From contig JAGLQB010000001.1 in NCBI GenBank assembly GCA_023137045.1, positions 1-51,972 of the forward strand: a DNA stretch of 51,972 nt, read 5' to 3'. Each line of letters begins with the position of its first letter. Position 1 is the first letter of the stretch. Made by a program: the position numbers and the translations under genes. Below, in pieces: positions 44,047 to 49,628 of the stretch. Origin of the DNA: Candidatus Pacearchaeota archaeon (lineage in GTDB: Archaea; Nanobdellota; Nanobdellia; Pacearchaeales; GW2011-AR1). The notes beneath the pieces were generated by a model, which was given only the letters and a program-made list of their open reading frames with translations, was not told where the DNA came from and ran no database searches.

Positions 44047-44123
44047 GAGCCTGTAGCTCATGAGGGGCACATCCCCTTACAGTAACCCCTATCGTTAAAA
44101 CCGATTAGAACGCTACAGACTCA
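44047..44123 (+). ncRNA. 77-nt tRNA-like structured element (not a canonical tRNA)
   Basis: Its first 14 nt (GAGCCTGTAGCTCA) are identical to the tRNA-Ile 5' end. 44047-44056 pairs with 44113-44122 at 9 of 10 bp. Internal hairpins are GGGG/CCCC (44064-44076) and ATCG/CGAT (44091-44105). I found no D arm or T arm. Confidence 0.35.
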
Positions 44124-44130
44124 GAACAAC

Positions 44131-44205
44131 GAGCCTGTAGCTCAGTCTGGTTAGAGTACTGCTCTGATAAGGCAGGGGTCCACGGTTCAAATCCGTGCAG
44201 GCTCA
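44131..44205 (+). tRNA. tRNA-Ile (anticodon GAT)
   Basis: GAGCCTG TA GCTC AGTCTGGTTA GAGT A CTGCT CTGATAA GGCAG GGGTC CACGG TTCAAAT CCGTG CAGGCTC A. Confidence 0.9.
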
Positions 44206-44462: not shown

Positions 44463-44587
44463 GCCCCTGTAGTCTAGAGGCCAAGGATACAGCCCTTTCA
44501 AAGTAAAGTGCTTGCACTTTTCATTACTCCAGTTTCTTTGGAGATTGAAGTAAGGCTGTGACCCGAGTTCGAATCTCGGCGGGGGCG
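44463..44587 (+). tRNA. tRNA-Glu (anticodon TTC) with an intron of about 52 nt at position 37/38
   Basis: GCCCCTG TA GTCT AGAGGCCAA GGAT A CAGCC CTTTCA[intron]A GGCTG TGAC CCGAG TTCGAAT CTCGG CGGGGGC G. The intron contains AAGTG-CTTG-CACTT and CTCCA-GTTTCTT-TGGAG hairpins. Confidence 0.9.
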
Positions 44588-44702
44588 TATATTATAAATG
44601 TGTTCGTTAGATAGTCATGAAACAAGAACACATTTATCCGATACTTCGGACAAAAAAGTTTAAGCGGAAAGGGAAAATCGAAAAAAACCGCAAGGTTGTT
44701 TT

Positions 44703-44731
44703 CAAGTTCGAGTTTCGGTTGGGGGCGTATA
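44703..44731 (+). repeat. degenerate copy of the tRNA-Glu T-arm and acceptor 3' end plus flank
   Basis: CAAGTTCGAGTTTCGGTTGGGGGCGTATA compares with CGAGTTCGAATCTCGGCGGGGGCGTATA in the tRNA. The downstream TTATAAAT flank is also repeated. There is no 5' half, so it is not a functional tRNA. Confidence 0.5.
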
Positions 44732-44738
44732 AATTATA

Positions 44739-45503
44739 TTATAAATTTCCAACAGCAAAAAGTGTTTCTTCTTTATTGCAATTTTTTGTGTCTTTTAATA
44801 CTCCTAAAATAATGCCCGAAGAATCTGCCTTTATCTGGTTCTTATTCATCAAACCAAGAACATCTCCTTTATTTACAATTTTTCCCAGACATACTTTAGA
44901 AATAAATTTTCCAGCAGAAGGGGCTTTGATTTTTTTATAATCAATAAAATTCACTTTTGCATTCTTTTTATTTTGAATAAAATTTATAACTGCTTTTTTT
45001 ACGATTTCAATATATTTTCTTTCAACTTTTTCAGAAGACCCAAATTCAATTATCATAGAAGGTATATTTTTTTTAGAAAGTTCAATAAAAAGTTGTCCTT
45101 TGTTTCCTAAGCATCGAACTGCATAGCTTAATCCAACTTTATTGGCAAAATCTTTATTGAACTGTTTTTTTAAATCTGTCAAAATAAATGGCAAGCATGT
45201 TCTACCATTAGCATAATTGTGCAAATCAATTACATAATCAAAGTTCTTAGCGAAATTAAAAATTTTAAACGCAAGCCTTTCAGAAAAAGTTCCATCTTTT
45301 TTTCCTGGAAAAGTTCTGTTTAAATTTTTTTTGTCTTCAGGATTTTCTTTTAAACCTAAACAATAAGCGATTTTATTTGCTCTTGGAATTATAGTAATAT
45401 TTTTTAGAGAATTTTTTTCCACCCATTCTTTTATTTCATATGCGGTTAATACTGCTGAAACTTCATCACCATGTATCCCTGCAATAATTAAAATTTTTTT
45501 CAT
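44739..45503 (-). CDS. succinylglutamate desuccinylase/aspartoacylase (AstE/AspA)-family zinc deacylase
   Basis: IIAGIHGDE, NLNRTFPG and VIDLHN. The ATG at 45503 lies 2 nt after the upstream stop, and the track start at 45509 is a TTG. Confidence 0.8.
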   Translation of the reverse strand: MKKILIIAGIHGDEVSAVLTAYEIKEWVEKNSLKNITIIPRANKIAYCLGLKENPEDKKNLNRTFPGKKDGTFSERLAFKIFNFAKNFDYVIDLHNYANGRTCLPFILTDLKKQFNKDFANKVGLSYAVRCLGNKGQLFIELSKKNIPSMIIEFGSSEKVERKYIEIVKKAVINFIQNKKNAKVNFIDYKKIKAPSAGKFISKVCLGKIVNKGDVLGLMNKNQIKADSSGIILGVLKDTKNCNKEETLFAVGNL

Positions 45504-45505
45504 AT

Positions 45506-46705
45506 TCAAACCTTATCAAATTTTGCTTGTTTAAGAGCTTGATTTATTTTTTTTGGGTCAATTTCAATTTCTGCACCTGACTGACAACAATTATCATAAC
45601 TTAGTAAAACTTTATTATCTGTCAAGTTCGCCACCATATTCCAGAAAGTTCTTTTATATGTAGAAAAGTTGTCCTTTTTTGTAACTGGGTGCGTGCAGAT
45701 GGAATAAAAAGAAGCGAATTGAGTTGGAGAAGATAAACCTACTTCCATTAATTCTCCTTTGTTCATCATGTTAACTATCTCATTTAAAATTTCGTCATCA
45801 AATAAATCTTGATAAACTGTGTGGGAGGAAAAAATATTTGGCCCACTCTCTTTGTGGGAAACCAAAAATCTATTTATAGACCTGATAAAATGTTCCTTTT
45901 CATCAAACTTTGAATTTTGTAAGTTCCATCCTTTCCTTTCAAAAAATTTAGATTCCAAACCAAAATTAGACCTAAAGTCTTTAGATTCTCCCTCGGAAAA
46001 AATTAAATTATACTTTTCTGAACCCAACACATCTGCAGGAAGATATTCTATAATCACTTGCCGTTTATCATCTGCAATCAAAAAGTTTGCTCCTCCAGGA
46101 GACTTATTTTTCCCGCTCTTAATGGTTTTTTCTAAATATTTTACTGCTTGATTAACATTTTCACAATTCAACAATATGTCATTAGTAATAACTGAATATG
46201 ATGGTCTATCTATTAGCCTGTTTTCATGTCTTATAGAAGAAGATTGCATAAACACTCCACCTTCATTTACTCCTCCCCATGACCTTTCCAAATTATAATG
46301 AGAATAGTTGCCAATTGTTGTAGGTCCATCAAAAGGAATCACAAATATTGCCTTTGTTGGCGAAGCTGCTGGCATTCCTATATTTTTGTTCAAATATATT
46401 CCTCCCCAAATATTTTCGCTCAATGTTTTCTTTAACTCTGTTGGTAACTTTTCTTTTGGAGCTAATTTATACAATTTTATAGCCAAGTCATCTGCTAAAT
46501 CAAAGTATCTTTTATCTTCTGCTACTCTCAGAATTTCATTTGCAAGATTTACTGTGTTTTCTGGGTCAATACCTAAATAAAATAATTTTGGTCTTGTTAT
46601 GTGTCTTGTTCTGATGACAAGGGTGTCCAAACTATTTTTACCGGGTTCTCGGTTTTTACCAGCATATTTTTTTCCATTATGTTCAAAATAACCTATAGTA
46701 CACAT
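45506..46705 (-). CDS. N-terminal-nucleophile (Cys2) amidohydrolase, choloylglycine hydrolase/peptidase C45-like
   Basis: Begins MCTIGY, contains GGVNEGGVF and GGANFLIADD. No closer assignment is possible by eye. Confidence 0.55.
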   Translation of the reverse strand: MCTIGYFEHNGKKYAGKNREPGKNSLDTLVIRTRHITRPKLFYLGIDPENTVNLANEILRVAEDKRYFDLADDLAIKLYKLAPKEKLPTELKKTLSENIWGGIYLNKNIGMPAASPTKAIFVIPFDGPTTIGNYSHYNLERSWGGVNEGGVFMQSSSIRHENRLIDRPSYSVITNDILLNCENVNQAVKYLEKTIKSGKNKSPGGANFLIADDKRQVIIEYLPADVLGSEKYNLIFSEGESKDFRSNFGLESKFFERKGWNLQNSKFDEKEHFIRSINRFLVSHKESGPNIFSSHTVYQDLFDDEILNEIVNMMNKGELMEVGLSSPTQFASFYSICTHPVTKKDNFSTYKRTFWNMVANLTDNKVLLSYDNCCQSGAEIEIDPKKINQALKQAKFDKV

Positions 46706-46706
46706 T

Positions 46707-48182
46707 TTAAATTTCTTTTATTGAACTTGACATTTTTTTAATTTGTTTTAATCTCTGACTTAAATTCGTGCTTACAATACGACAAATATCTGCGGCGTTT
46801 ACTTTTCTTGTATGCCCATCACTTTTTGAAGAAGCATAACTTTTTGGCAGAATTATCTCTTCTTCATTAAAGTTTGGCAAACTTGCGAAATAAGGGGTCT
46901 TTAAATTCCAATCATGGTCTCTAACATTTTCTCCTTCGGGGAATTTAATAAATTTCATCCACCCTTCTTTTTTTAATAGATACATATCAAAACAAATATC
47001 TTGTTTTTCAAAATTATTTACCCATTCTGTAAAATCATAACTTTTCTTTTCTTTAGATAACTGTAATTCAGCTTCAAGATAAGAAAGAGGAGGCATATTT
47101 TTAGGCCTAAATTTTTCTAACACTGAAGTATTTACAACAGCAGAATGATTTTTTCTTGGATTAATTTCCACAAAGTAGAATTCATCTTCTGCAACAATTC
47201 CATCTATGCCACCAATACCCCGATAACCTTGTTTTCTCATAATTTCTCCGACTTTAAGTGCTTCTTCTTTTACTTTTTTTAACATTTGTTTATTAAATTT
47301 CAAAGGATAAGAATTCCCATAATACTTTGTACCTTGTTCAATTATTTGGTTTGTGGCTATTAGTACATGTGGCGCACAATCATCAATAAAAAGCATTATG
47401 TTGGGAGCAGAATCTATGTTTCTGAGCCATTTTGTAATTATTAATTGGCCAGAATCACCATAACCAAATTTTTCTTTGATTTCAAAAGGAGAATAAGCAT
47501 GCAAACAACCAACTCCCCCAGCACCACTTACAGCAGATACAAAAGCTTCTCCTCCCCATTTTTCACGATTTTGCAAAAATACTTCTGAAGCTTCTTCTGG
47601 AGAATTCACGACTTTTCCTTCCACAGTTTTAATTCCTTTATTTTGCATTATCTTATACATCTCTGCTTTATTTGCCAAAAGTTCTTTTGTTTTCAAGGAA
47701 GGAGATATTATTTTCAATTTATTACCAGCCATGCTCTCAAGATTATCAAGTCCTGCTGAAATCATATATGGGAAAAAAAGTGCTCCATTATTTTTTTCTG
47801 AAACATCTTGCATATAGCTCAAAACTTCTTTACTAAATTTTTCATTTAATGGATTATACAAAGAAGAATAAATATTTTCTTTGTTTTCTGGTCTTGGAAT
47901 GTTAGTTAGTTTTCTACACAAAGAATCTTCTGACATTGAAATAAAATATTTTTTATGTGTAAATTTATCATAAAAATCAGAATAAGCAAAAATTTTTGTA
48001 TCTGTTTCTCTCTCAATTTTATCAAGATTGGATGTTCTATTCGGAACTATGGCTCCTGCAATTTTAAAACCATGTCCTACAATTTCAATCATATGCTCTG
48101 GATCAGTAGAGATAGTAAAAGCAGGCAAATCTGATAATTCCCCTTTATATCCTGAAAAATTTCCATAGTATTTTTTATCCAT
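46707..48182 (-). CDS. ATP-grasp-fold ligase, unknown specificity
   Basis: LANKAEMYKIMQNKGI, GGVGCLHAY and GYRGIGGIDGIV...EFYFVEINPRKNHS. The extended N- and C-terminal regions are unassigned. Confidence 0.7.
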   Translation of the reverse strand: MDKKYYGNFSGYKGELSDLPAFTISTDPEHMIEIVGHGFKIAGAIVPNRTSNLDKIERETDTKIFAYSDFYDKFTHKKYFISMSEDSLCRKLTNIPRPENKENIYSSLYNPLNEKFSKEVLSYMQDVSEKNNGALFFPYMISAGLDNLESMAGNKLKIISPSLKTKELLANKAEMYKIMQNKGIKTVEGKVVNSPEEASEVFLQNREKWGGEAFVSAVSGAGGVGCLHAYSPFEIKEKFGYGDSGQLIITKWLRNIDSAPNIMLFIDDCAPHVLIATNQIIEQGTKYYGNSYPLKFNKQMLKKVKEEALKVGEIMRKQGYRGIGGIDGIVAEDEFYFVEINPRKNHSAVVNTSVLEKFRPKNMPPLSYLEAELQLSKEKKSYDFTEWVNNFEKQDICFDMYLLKKEGWMKFIKFPEGENVRDHDWNLKTPYFASLPNFNEEEIILPKSYASSKSDGHTRKVNAADICRIVSTNLSQRLKQIKKMSSSIKEI

Positions 48183-48269
48183 TTTTAGTGTATTTTTATG
48201 TTTAACATAGAATTGAATACTCCAGATAATTTCTGTTTATAAAAATTTCGTAATTTTTTACTTAATTTA

Positions 48270-49628
48270 TCAGAATTTTTTAACCATATAAGTTTTATCT
48301 AACTTATACCCTAATTTTTTGTAATACTCCCGAACTCCAACACCACTTATCACTGACAATTTTTTGACTTTATTTTTTTTAACAATTTTTTCTGCCTCTT
48401 CCATCAACCATTTTCCAAGACCTCTGTGTTGAGAAGTTTTTCCTTTTTCACCTAATTTCAAAGCTTGACCATAAACATGAATCTCACGAATTATCGCAAA
48501 ATTGTCAAACAATCTCAATCTTAATAACCCAAACAAAATATCGTTTTTGTTCACAATTTCCAAAAAATATTCTTTTCCTCCAGAAGATTTGTATTTTGTA
48601 ATTTTTAAGTCTAAATCTAAATTTACTTCTTTTCTTCTTAAAGCAAAACCAATTTCTCGGTATCTTATTTCTTTTAATTTACTATTCTTTTTTCTAAATT
48701 CAGCTTCAATATCTTTTCTTAAATCAATATTAATTATTCCTGCCACAATATATTCTGGAGGGATTTCCCTCATAACTCTCATAACTCTGCAATATCTTGG
48801 AACAACTTTTAACATTTCAATAAGAATGTGCTCTGTTTCTTTTTTAGTATATGGCTTGTATCCTCCTTTCCAATAAACTTCCTCAAGTCCAGAACTAGGA
48901 ATTACCTGACACGGATAAAGTTTTAATTGGTCTGGTTTAAATCTTTCATCTGAAAAAAGTTTTTTGAAAAGTCTTAAATCTTTTTTGAAATTACTTCCAG
49001 GTAATCCAGGCATTATGTGATACCCAATTTTAAAACCAGCATTTTTCAAATTTTTAGTTGCATTAATCACGTCTTTTACAGTGTGCCCCCTTTGAATTTT
49101 CTTGTAGATTTTATCATCAATAATTTGCACCCCAAGTTCTACTCTTGTGACGCCAAATTCTCGCATTTTATCTATATGCTTTGAGCAAACATCTGGTCTT
49201 GTTTCAACGCAAAGTGCAACACAACGATGTTCAGCTTTTTCATTTAATTTTTGAGCTTGTTTCAAATTCTTTGATGTTTTTTGATTCATCGCATCATAGC
49301 ATCCTTTGATAAATTCACTTTGAAATTTCTCTGGATATTCTAGAAAAGTTCCCCCCATAATTATTAATTCAATCTTTTCAGTTGGATGGTGCATAGCTTT
49401 AAACGCATTTATCCTCGCCTTGACTTGCTTGTAAGCGTCGTAATTCAATTCTTTTGCTCTCATTACAACTGGGCTTTTGGGAGTATAACTTTGCGGAACA
49501 TTTAATGAAGGGCAATACAAACAATCCCCGTGCTCACATTTTCTTGGAGGCAACATCACAGCTACAGGAGTAATACCTGAGAGAGTTTTTGTCGGCTTTC
49601 TAACTTCATTCTTCTTTGGTTTTAACAT
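48270..49628 (-). CDS. elp3: Elp3-like radical SAM/GNAT tRNA modification enzyme
   Basis: SGITPVAVMLPPRKCEHGDCLYCP, ELIIMGGTF and a C-terminal GNAT segment (QHRGLGKWLMEEAEKI). Confidence 0.85.
   Translation of the reverse strand: MLKPKKNEVRKPTKTLSGITPVAVMLPPRKCEHGDCLYCPSLNVPQSYTPKSPVVMRAKELNYDAYKQVKARINAFKAMHHPTEKIELIIMGGTFLEYPEKFQSEFIKGCYDAMNQKTSKNLKQAQKLNEKAEHRCVALCVETRPDVCSKHIDKMREFGVTRVELGVQIIDDKIYKKIQRGHTVKDVINATKNLKNAGFKIGYHIMPGLPGSNFKKDLRLFKKLFSDERFKPDQLKLYPCQVIPSSGLEEVYWKGGYKPYTKKETEHILIEMLKVVPRYCRVMRVMREIPPEYIVAGIINIDLRKDIEAEFRKKNSKLKEIRYREIGFALRRKEVNLDLDLKITKYKSSGGKEYFLEIVNKNDILFGLLRLRLFDNFAIIREIHVYGQALKLGEKGKTSQHRGLGKWLMEEAEKIVKKNKVKKLSVISGVGVREYYKKLGYKLDKTYMVKKF

Follow-up and report, generated by a model that had tools for sequence, protein, structure and literature searches.

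The window analyzed here, a stretch of 51,972 nucleotides (nt) from contig JAGLQB010000001.1 of a Candidatus Pacearchaeota archaeon (GenBank assembly GCA_023137045.1, positions 1 to 51,972 of the forward strand), carries on its minus strand a compact block of three genes. These encode a divergent ATP-grasp ligase, a protein resembling amidohydrolases with an N-terminal nucleophile (Ntn) cysteine, and a zinc deacylase of the AstE/AspA family. The conserved, co-evolving core of the block is the pair of ATP-grasp and Ntn genes, and the AstE gene is a facultative accessory. As a class of explanation we tentatively favor a cytoplasmic synthetase/amidase couple acting on a small amide of the Asp/Glu type. 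The theme of an amidoligase joined to an amidohydrolase is a known one; here it is built from two unnamed families restricted to DPANN archaea. The three genes are:

46707 to 48182, minus strand: divergent ATP-grasp carboxylate-amine ligase, 491 amino acids (aa), assigned from PF02655, AlphaFold2 (AF2)/Foldseek and invariant residues
45506 to 46705, minus strand: 399-aa Ntn protein resembling amidohydrolases/acyltransferases, with an N-terminal Cys; its family is unnamed and it is obligately paired with the ATP-grasp protein; assigned from Foldseek, sub-threshold C45 matches and the N-terminal Cys
44739 to 45503, minus strand: zinc deacylase of 254 aa from the AstE/AspA family, encoded by the facultative third gene, assigned from PF24827

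In a mechanical list of open reading frames (ORFs) the block appears as three back-to-back minus-strand ORFs at 46707-48182 (491 aa), 45506-46705 (399 aa) and 44739-45509. Direct reading of the junctions confirmed the very short spacers described in the first-pass annotation of this DNA. The ATP-grasp stop codon occupies 46709-46707 and the Ntn gene starts with ATG at 46705 (...ATT TAA A ATG TGT ACT), a spacer of 1 nt; the Ntn stop codon occupies 45508-45506 and the AstE ATG lies at 45503 (...GTT TGA AT ATG AAA), a spacer of 2 nt. The list gave AstE a TTG start at 45509. Since AstE homologs begin MKKILI or MKRILI, ATG 45503 is the true start (254 aa) and the TTG is an artefact. The motifs quoted in the first-pass annotation were all found: GYRGIGGIDGIV and EFYFVEINPR in the ATP-grasp protein, MCT, GGVNEGG and GANFLIADD in the Ntn protein, and GIHGDE, NLNRTFPG and DLH in AstE. 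No signal peptide or transmembrane segment was present in any of the three proteins, and the Ntn nucleophile is residue 2; the system is therefore cytoplasmic. The whole gene block would form one transcription unit of a DPANN-specific module.

The partners of this module are rare and travel together. Only seven full-length relatives of the ATP-grasp protein were present in an index of 5.8 billion proteins, an exhaustive profile search of 1.84 billion sequences returned 13 representatives of the Ntn family, and a search of 185,579 species genomes with a five-member alignment found only two loci. Going by source labels, the carriers are Pacearchaeota, Woesearchaeota, Aenigmatarchaeota and Nanohaloarchaea, together with a distant clade whose two partner proteins are approximately 25-30% identical to the window proteins (29% identity and E 3e-38 for the ATP-grasp protein). 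The ATP-grasp gene was always followed directly by the Ntn gene, in nine of nine informative contexts that span 25-90% identity and have varying flanks. The two genes lie 0-13 nt apart or overlap by 29-41 nt at the other loci, compared with the spacer of 1 nt in the window. Pairwise identities of the ATP-grasp and Ntn proteins across nine loci were correlated with r = 0.96, which is a descriptive value, as the pairs are not independent. The ORF layout of one further locus, L011 (CAZXZL010000010.1, labelled as an uncultured Methanosarcinales metagenome-assembled genome), is that of the DPANN-type locus L004/5 gene for gene, with the same tblastn identities to the window proteins, and this contig is likely to be mis-binned.

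The AstE gene follows the pair as third gene, in the same order, in four lineages (the window, L004/5/11, L008 and L009), and is absent from three (L001-3, L007/L010 and L013/14). A downstream Gins51-L21e-Rpb4 synteny is common to L004, which has AstE, and L007/L010, which do not, indicating that AstE has been cleanly gained or lost. The first-pass annotation had treated the three genes as one unit. Co-conservation holds for the ATP-grasp/Ntn pair, but the triad is not obligate.

The 491-aa protein matched the Pfam ATP-grasp_3 family (PF02655) over residues 216-343 with 37.8 bits against a gathering cut-off of 23.2, and a precomputed PF02655 domain is listed for all seven ATP-grasp homologs. 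Its AF2 model (predicted local distance difference test score, pLDDT, 79; predicted template modeling score, pTM, 0.84) gave full-length Foldseek matches to biotin carboxylase, PurD and PurT (E 1e-13 to 2e-15; query template modeling score, TMq, 0.5-0.55; 10-14% identity). Model and matches point to the three-domain ATP-grasp fold, arranged as N-terminal pre-ATP-grasp, central, C-terminal and extra C-terminal subdomains. The family assignment of the first-pass annotation was therefore upheld, but its "large unassigned" N- and C-terminal regions superpose in full on, and are, ordinary subdomains of the biotin carboxylase/PurD/PurT architecture. D327, E339, N341 and R343 are invariant in the seven ATP-grasp sequences and align to F-I-E-x-N-x-R of biotin carboxylase, so that the Mg/phosphate ligands (an acidic residue, E-x-N and Arg) are predicted to be in place.

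No named ATP-grasp enzyme was reached at its cut-off. The best score of the window protein against the NCBIfam equivalogs was 29.6 bits versus a cut-off of 684, the remainder scored at most about 30 bits versus cut-offs of 270-965, and the RimK/LysX models gave no match at all; the enzymes compared were biotin carboxylase, CarB, PurK/PurT/PurD, Ddl, LysX/RimK, MfnD, BesA and LdmS. We did not accept an identity with biotin carboxylase or PurK/PurT, the best fold matches notwithstanding, on the grounds that scores fall far under the cut-offs and that the position of biotin carboxylase E296 is not conserved. Three models were matched by all seven family members, namely LdmS (an Asp-Met ligase), MfnD (a tyramine-Glu ligase) and PRK12767 (uncharacterized, carbamoyl-phosphate-synthase-like). 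The best E-value, 6.9e-11, was obtained with BesA (the propargylglycine (Pra)-Glu ligase), which six of the seven members matched. The acyl donor of each of the three characterized relatives, LdmS, MfnD and BesA, is Asp or Glu, and a Q-I-I...Y-x-G-N-x-x-P motif is common to the ATP-grasp family, 3df7 and BesA.

The 399-aa partner belongs to no Pfam family (AAT, 12.8 bits versus 23.2; CBAH, no match), and searches of PDB sequences with the protein and with its profile returned noise only. The only family matched was NCBIfam C45_proenzyme, with 25.3 bits for the window protein versus a cut-off of 85, and sub-threshold matches in five of the 13 Ntn members (best E 6.5e-8). All of the top 50 Foldseek PDB matches of its AF2 model (pLDDT 60, pTM 0.68) were penicillin V acylase (PVA), bile salt hydrolase (BSH) or isopenicillin-N acyltransferase (IAT) (E 2e-6 to 5e-4, probability 0.98-1.00), which suggests an Ntn fold of alpha-beta-beta-alpha type, with the caveat of a low-confidence model. 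A Cys stands straight after Met, or after a propeptide of 1-4 residues, in 11 of the 13 members; of the other two, one is N-truncated and one has lost the Cys. The N-terminus reads MCT in the window, MEEN-C, MDEE-C, MS-C, MVEN-C and MNE-C in near homologs, and MCTI in the distant ones. These observations agree with the first-pass view of this protein as a Cys-Ntn enzyme of the choloylglycine hydrolase (CGH)/C45 type. The CGH catalytic set comprises Cys2, Arg18, Asp21, Asn81, Asn175 and Arg228 (PMC8066178). Judged by motif, C2, K17-x-x-E20 and N147 in WGG.NE.G parallel BSH Cys2, R18-x-x-D21 and N81, and N247, R275 and R279 might correspond to further residues of the set by sequence order only. 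Alignment of the Ntn family to Clostridium perfringens BSH with hhalign covered only the N81/helix region with low probability, and we take it as no more than a sign of consistency. Further invariant residues are H160, E220, H295, C337, H339 and C374, and N247 is likewise invariant.

The product of the third gene, proposed in the first-pass annotation to be an AstE/AspA zinc deacylase, scored 83 bits against PF24827 (AstE; cut-off 25). Residues H11, E14, H95, R63 and E153 are invariant among the triad homologs, and the zinc ligands H-x-x-E...H and the catalytic Glu are intact, in keeping with that proposal. Members of the AstE/AspA family act on N-acyl-Asp, N-acyl-Glu or N-acyl-diaminobutyrate (DABA). 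Among PDB entries, Mlr6093 and N-acetyl-DABA deacetylase are its best relatives. No equivalog was reached (DoeB, 51.1 versus 402.7 bits; MpaA, 21.7 versus 157; aspartoacylase, 21.3 versus 180), and there was a weak Peptidase_M14/MpaA signal. Scanning metagenomes with the AstE alignment yielded for the most part generic AstE relatives of at most 33% identity, none near an ATP-grasp or Ntn gene of this kind. The closest metagenomic relative (L015; 48% identity) has unrelated genes upstream and no ATP-grasp/Ntn pair, on which ground an AstE subfamily exclusive to the module was rejected.

The explanation that we favor, tentatively, would have the ATP-grasp and Cys-Ntn subunits form a heteromeric complex. 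The ATP-grasp subunit would activate a carboxylate as an acyl-phosphate and then join the acyl group to an amine; this carboxylate would most plausibly be that of Asp or Glu, since LdmS, MfnD and BesA are the nearest characterized relatives. The Ntn Cys, exposed by removal of Met or by autoprocessing of the 1-4-residue propeptide, would be linked as a thioester to the acyl portion of a small linear amide, followed by hydrolysis or transfer. Both subunits would act on the same or on successive small amides, for example a gamma-glutamyl or dipeptide-like conjugate, in an order of reactions that we infer. AstE, where present, might strip a further N-acyl group or a C-terminal acidic residue. The make-then-trim route to an amide product proposed in the first-pass annotation is likewise hypothetical.

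Several observations weigh against this scheme. In the ATP-grasp proteins of the near clade an invariant Ser216 occupies the position of the ATP-grasp strand Lys that precedes the Gly-rich loop (IIKA in biotin carboxylase), and in the distant clade (L013) a Lys lies one position after the equivalent of Ser216; the sequence alignment suggests that nucleotide handling may be atypical. Matches to characterized ATP-grasp families, at 20-40 bits versus cut-offs of 270-750, are far under threshold. The template modeling scores of the Ntn Foldseek matches are only 0.25-0.37, from a model of low confidence (pLDDT 60), and only part of the CGH catalytic set is alignable in the Ntn family. H295, C337, H339 and C374 are invariant in 13 of 13 Ntn members and have no BSH/PVA counterpart; this quartet might be a metal site, in a region where AF2 confidence is low. 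The compared loci yielded no product, carrier or substrate ORF. A synthetase and an amidase acting on one bond would run a futile cycle unless regulated, and why an organism of reduced metabolism should need such a metabolite is not obvious.

The nearest functional analogy to the pair may be glutathionylspermidine synthetase/amidase (GspSA, Gss of E. coli), a single fused cytoplasmic polypeptide in which an ATP-grasp-like ligase and a Cys amidase act on a small amide. Amidase activity resides there in a CHAP (papain-like) domain, glutathione and spermidine serve as substrates, and the antagonism of synthetase and amidase is regulable through the Cys. In contrast, the window has separate genes and an Ntn fold, shows no sequence relationship to GspSA (no match), and gives no indication of glutathione or spermidine. 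Another possible analogy is gamma-glutamyl protection and release. The Bes pathway uses the gamma-glutamyl group as a transient handle, and gamma-Glu-Pra is the substrate of BesE (bioRxiv 10.1101/2025.10.10.681649). The most consistent characterized relatives of the catalytic half are BesA (gamma-Glu-propargylglycine), MfnD (gamma-Glu-tyramine) and LdmS (Asp-Met), with which it shares the Q-I-I...Y-x-G-x-x-x-P and E-I-N-x-R motifs. However, it scores 20-40 bits against their cut-offs of 400-750, the window protein is longer, with N- and C-terminal subdomains like those of biotin carboxylase/PurD, and those enzymes have no Ntn partner gene.

The Ntn protein resembles the CGH enzymes (BSH/PVA, MEROPS C59) and C45 (IAT) in its N-terminal Cys, a basic-x-x-acidic motif 15-18 residues further on, the N-E-x-G oxyanion motif and its best structural matches. 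It differs from them in its low identity (10-14%), the lack of Pfam CBAH/AAT matches, an insertion, about 65 residues long, in near-clade members, the four extra invariant His/Cys residues and the constant presence of an ATP-grasp partner. AstE shares with succinylglutamate desuccinylase, aspartoacylase and the N-acetyl-DABA deacetylase DoeB a Pfam domain above cut-off and the conserved zinc site (H-x-x-E...H), Arg and catalytic Glu, but is approximately 70 residues shorter than its solved relatives and has no arginine- or ectoine-catabolism context. The literature searched contained no description of an ATP-grasp enzyme paired with an Ntn/C45/CGH protein, or of such a system in DPANN archaea. 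The genes are neighbors in other genomes too, and none of the proteins reaches the cut-off of any named pathway family; the label of an uncharacterized amide system given in the first-pass annotation stands.

Three independent lineages have, directly upstream of the pair and in the same orientation, a gene for anticodon-loop tRNA modification, namely Elp3 in the window (48270-49628, minus strand; TIGR01211, 536 bits), a bacterial-type Tgt in L001-3 (L001 6771-7931; 347 bits), and MiaB-like-B/MtaB in L008 (2980-4263) and L009 (1-876). A ThiI-like THUMP gene is two genes away from the pair in L014, and genes related to aminoacyl-tRNA (GatDE, LeuRS and ArgRS) are found near the pair elsewhere. 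In the other contexts the neighbors are unrelated (an Lrp regulator, a MoaA-like radical SAM gene and an integrase). The occurrence of anticodon-loop neighbors in three of seven contexts, against a background of about 3% in the gene table, gives a binomial p of about 1e-3, a rough estimate that is uncorrected and for a category chosen post hoc. We treat this recurrence as a lead, not a finding; it could reflect a functional link or the gene-dense genomes of DPANN archaea. The Tgt of L001 passes the bacterial queuosine-type model TIGR00430 (346.6 versus 306.75 bits) and fails the archaeal archaeosine model TgtA (164 versus 350).

Genes for the archaeal Glu-tRNA(Gln) amidotransferase, gatE and gatD, are convergent to the triad on two Aenigmatarchaeota-like contigs (L008 8369-11553 and L009 5268-9715), and a conserved membrane protein of 113-116 aa is encoded between gatE/gatD and the triad. 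On a Nanohaloarchaeal contig (L006 35-1039) a tandem Lrp/AsnC-type regulator is divergent from the pair; regulators of this type usually sense amino acids. The short conserved substrate ORF for which the first-pass annotation had suggested a search was not found: tblastn detected no conserved small ORF near the module except the membrane protein that L008 and L009, which are syntenic, have in common. As that annotation had noted for the window, no LysW-like, RimK or Mur context was seen at the compared loci, and no small carrier or precursor ORF of the kind used by LysW/LysX, RimK-S6 or graspetide systems adjoins the ligase across contexts.

We weighed five other explanations. The juxtaposition of three unrelated housekeeping genes by chance would be easy to imagine in compact DPANN genomes, where spacers are short everywhere, and AstE is not always present. 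However, the pair is adjacent in every informative context, across four phylum-level groups, down to approximately 25% identity and with changing flanks, and the order of the triad is kept in four lineages. Chance is thus effectively refuted for the pair and, for the block, extremely improbable. A glutamine-dependent amidotransferase is unlikely in our estimation. It would be a two-subunit analog of CarA/CarB or GatD/MurT in which the Ntn protein is the glutaminase, using its Cys1 as in the class II enzymes PurF, AsnB and GlmS, and channels ammonia to the ATP-grasp subunit, where an acyl-phosphate would be amidated. An obligate, translationally coupled and co-evolving pair is typical of glutaminase and synthetase subunits, the N-terminal Cys is conserved, the ATP-grasp fold is nearest to the biotin carboxylase/carbamoyl-phosphate synthase/PurT group, which uses small nucleophiles, and GatDE adjoins the module in L008 and L009. 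In its K-x-x-E and N-E-x-G motifs the Ntn protein fits CGH/C45 rather than class II glutaminases, which carry H-x-R-[YW]-x-T and H-N-G; it has no GATase_2-type match in Pfam (GATase_2/4/6/7) or NCBIfam, and class II amidotransferases account for none of its top 50 Foldseek matches, all of which are CGH/PVA/IAT.

Tagging and trimming of peptides or proteins, in which the ATP-grasp enzyme adds amino acids to a C-terminus or side chain in the manner of RimK/TTLL and the M14-like AstE and the Ntn protein process the tag, appears rather unlikely. PMC4431377 cites Iyer et al. 2009 for ATP-grasp enzymes recurring with M14-like or Ntn peptidases in predicted tagging systems, and AstE, with its weak Peptidase_M14/MpaA signal, falls in the carboxypeptidase-like clan. 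Against this, the surroundings of the module contain no conserved small ORF, carrier or target gene, RimK/LysX signal is nil, AstE is dispensable, and the substrates of CGH/C45 enzymes are small non-peptide amides. Salvage of host amides, which we consider rather improbable, would have the hydrolases degrade N-acyl amino acids or small peptides imported from the host and the ATP-grasp enzyme re-ligate a freed amino acid to give a conjugate that the cell requires, as in recycling of the MpaA/Mpl type. DPANN archaea rely on host metabolites, remoter AstE relatives lie, as read by eye, beside Dpp/Opp-like ABC transporter genes, and the divergent Lrp/AsnC regulator adjoins the Nanohaloarchaeal pair. 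However, no transporter adjoins any locus of the pair, and strict coupling of ligase and Ntn protein would be unexpected for independent catabolic hydrolases. The upstream Elp3, Tgt and MtaB genes, the ThiI-like THUMP gene near the L014 pair and the tRNA-Glu(UUC), a typical xm5U34 tRNA, downstream of the block in the window could point to a tRNA nucleoside modification, in which the pair amidates or aminoacylates an anticodon-loop carboxylate (cm5U34 to ncm5U34, for example). The pair would then be a new two-subunit tRNA enzyme, in which the ATP-grasp subunit activates a nucleoside carboxylate (the cm5U34 product of the neighboring Elp3, or a t6A derivative) and the Ntn subunit supplies ammonia, an acyl group or an amino-acid group to give an amide such as ncm5U; to our knowledge no enzyme for a cm5U to ncm5U-type amidation has been described. 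If this were true, the recurrence of upstream Elp3, Tgt and MtaB in three independent lineages would be functional. But the partner gene differs each time and other contexts are unrelated, information-processing genes are packed densely in DPANN genomes, Elp3 and MtaB are each far commoner than the pair, a Pfam search gave no RNA-binding domain, and AstE would have no obvious role; we consider both the pathway and the enzyme very unlikely.

A module of 2.7-3.4 kb has been kept in four DPANN phyla despite their stripped-down genomes, which suggests that it probably matters in their life as symbionts. The Ntn proteins constitute a family that has no Pfam model and comprises about 13 sequence clusters in 1.8 billion. 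The chemistry of the pair could reveal a novel metabolite of DPANN cells in the form of a small amide, a new coupling of acyl-phosphate formation to a Cys-thioester relay or, less likely, a missing tRNA-modification enzyme. As a target the pair is well defined, rare and conserved.

The block is flanked by the following features:

48183 to 48269, minus strand: AT-rich intergenic stretch of 87 nt from the Elp3 stop to the ATP-grasp ATG (read from the sequence)
44681 to 44687, minus strand: T7 run approximately 55 nt 3' of the AstE stop, after a weak hairpin (fold z -1.96 only)
44704 to 44731, plus strand: degenerate copy of the tRNA-Glu 3' end (23 of 27 positions versus 44565-44591, plus one 1-nt indel)
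44463 to 44587, plus strand: tRNA-Glu(UUC), whose 52-nt intron is canonically placed, the convergent neighbor of the operon (Rfam; ARAGORN -i)

The 87-nt gap upstream of the ATP-grasp gene contains a TATA-like TTTTTATAAA at 48245-48236 and could hold a promoter of its own. Such strings are common at 31% G+C and so provide weak promoter evidence, and co-transcription with Elp3 is conceivable too. At the other end, the T7 run at 44687-44681 is likely to be an archaeal transcription stop. A plus-strand ORF of 107 aa (44617-44940) spans the tRNA-repeat region, overlaps the AstE 3' end in antisense and is probably spurious.

The tRNA-Glu and the degenerate copy of its 3' end, which the first-pass annotation had reported beside the operon, are both present. 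The Rfam tRNA model matched 44463-44587 (plus strand) with 46.6 bits; ARAGORN with default settings called only a tRNA-Ile at 44131-44205, and called the tRNA-Glu(UUC) once introns were allowed. The core of the repeat, TCGGNNGGGGGCG, is G-rich, with 0.01 occurrences expected by chance. The copy lies 8 nt past the AstE stop, probably within the 3' untranslated region of the operon and before the T7 run. The same annotation had taken the repeat as a hint of acquisition, which our results do not bear out: the tRNA-Glu and its 3'-end copy enclose only approximately 115 nt and no gene, so that the operon is not bracketed, and G+C is uniform at about 0.31 throughout the region. There are no further copies of the tRNA-Glu 3' end elsewhere in the window and no integrase within 5 kb on either side of the operon. 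A viral contig scan, PHROGs and PADLOC gave no match for the module and thus no viral or defence support. A mobile element integrated at the tRNA gene was rejected, there being no bracketing repeats, integrase or deviant composition. The repeat may be the scar of an old integration event, and does not mark the operon as acquired.

A 76-nt element (44047-44122, plus strand) lies just 5' of the tRNA-Ile(GAU). Over its first 14 nt (GAGCCTGTAGCTCA) it reproduces the 5' end of this tRNA (44131-44144) exactly, and it had no Rfam match at E<=1. Its fold (minimum free energy -23.2 kcal/mol, z -3.9) has a closing stem of 11 bp and two hairpins, and the element may represent a tRNA copy in decay or a structured leader.

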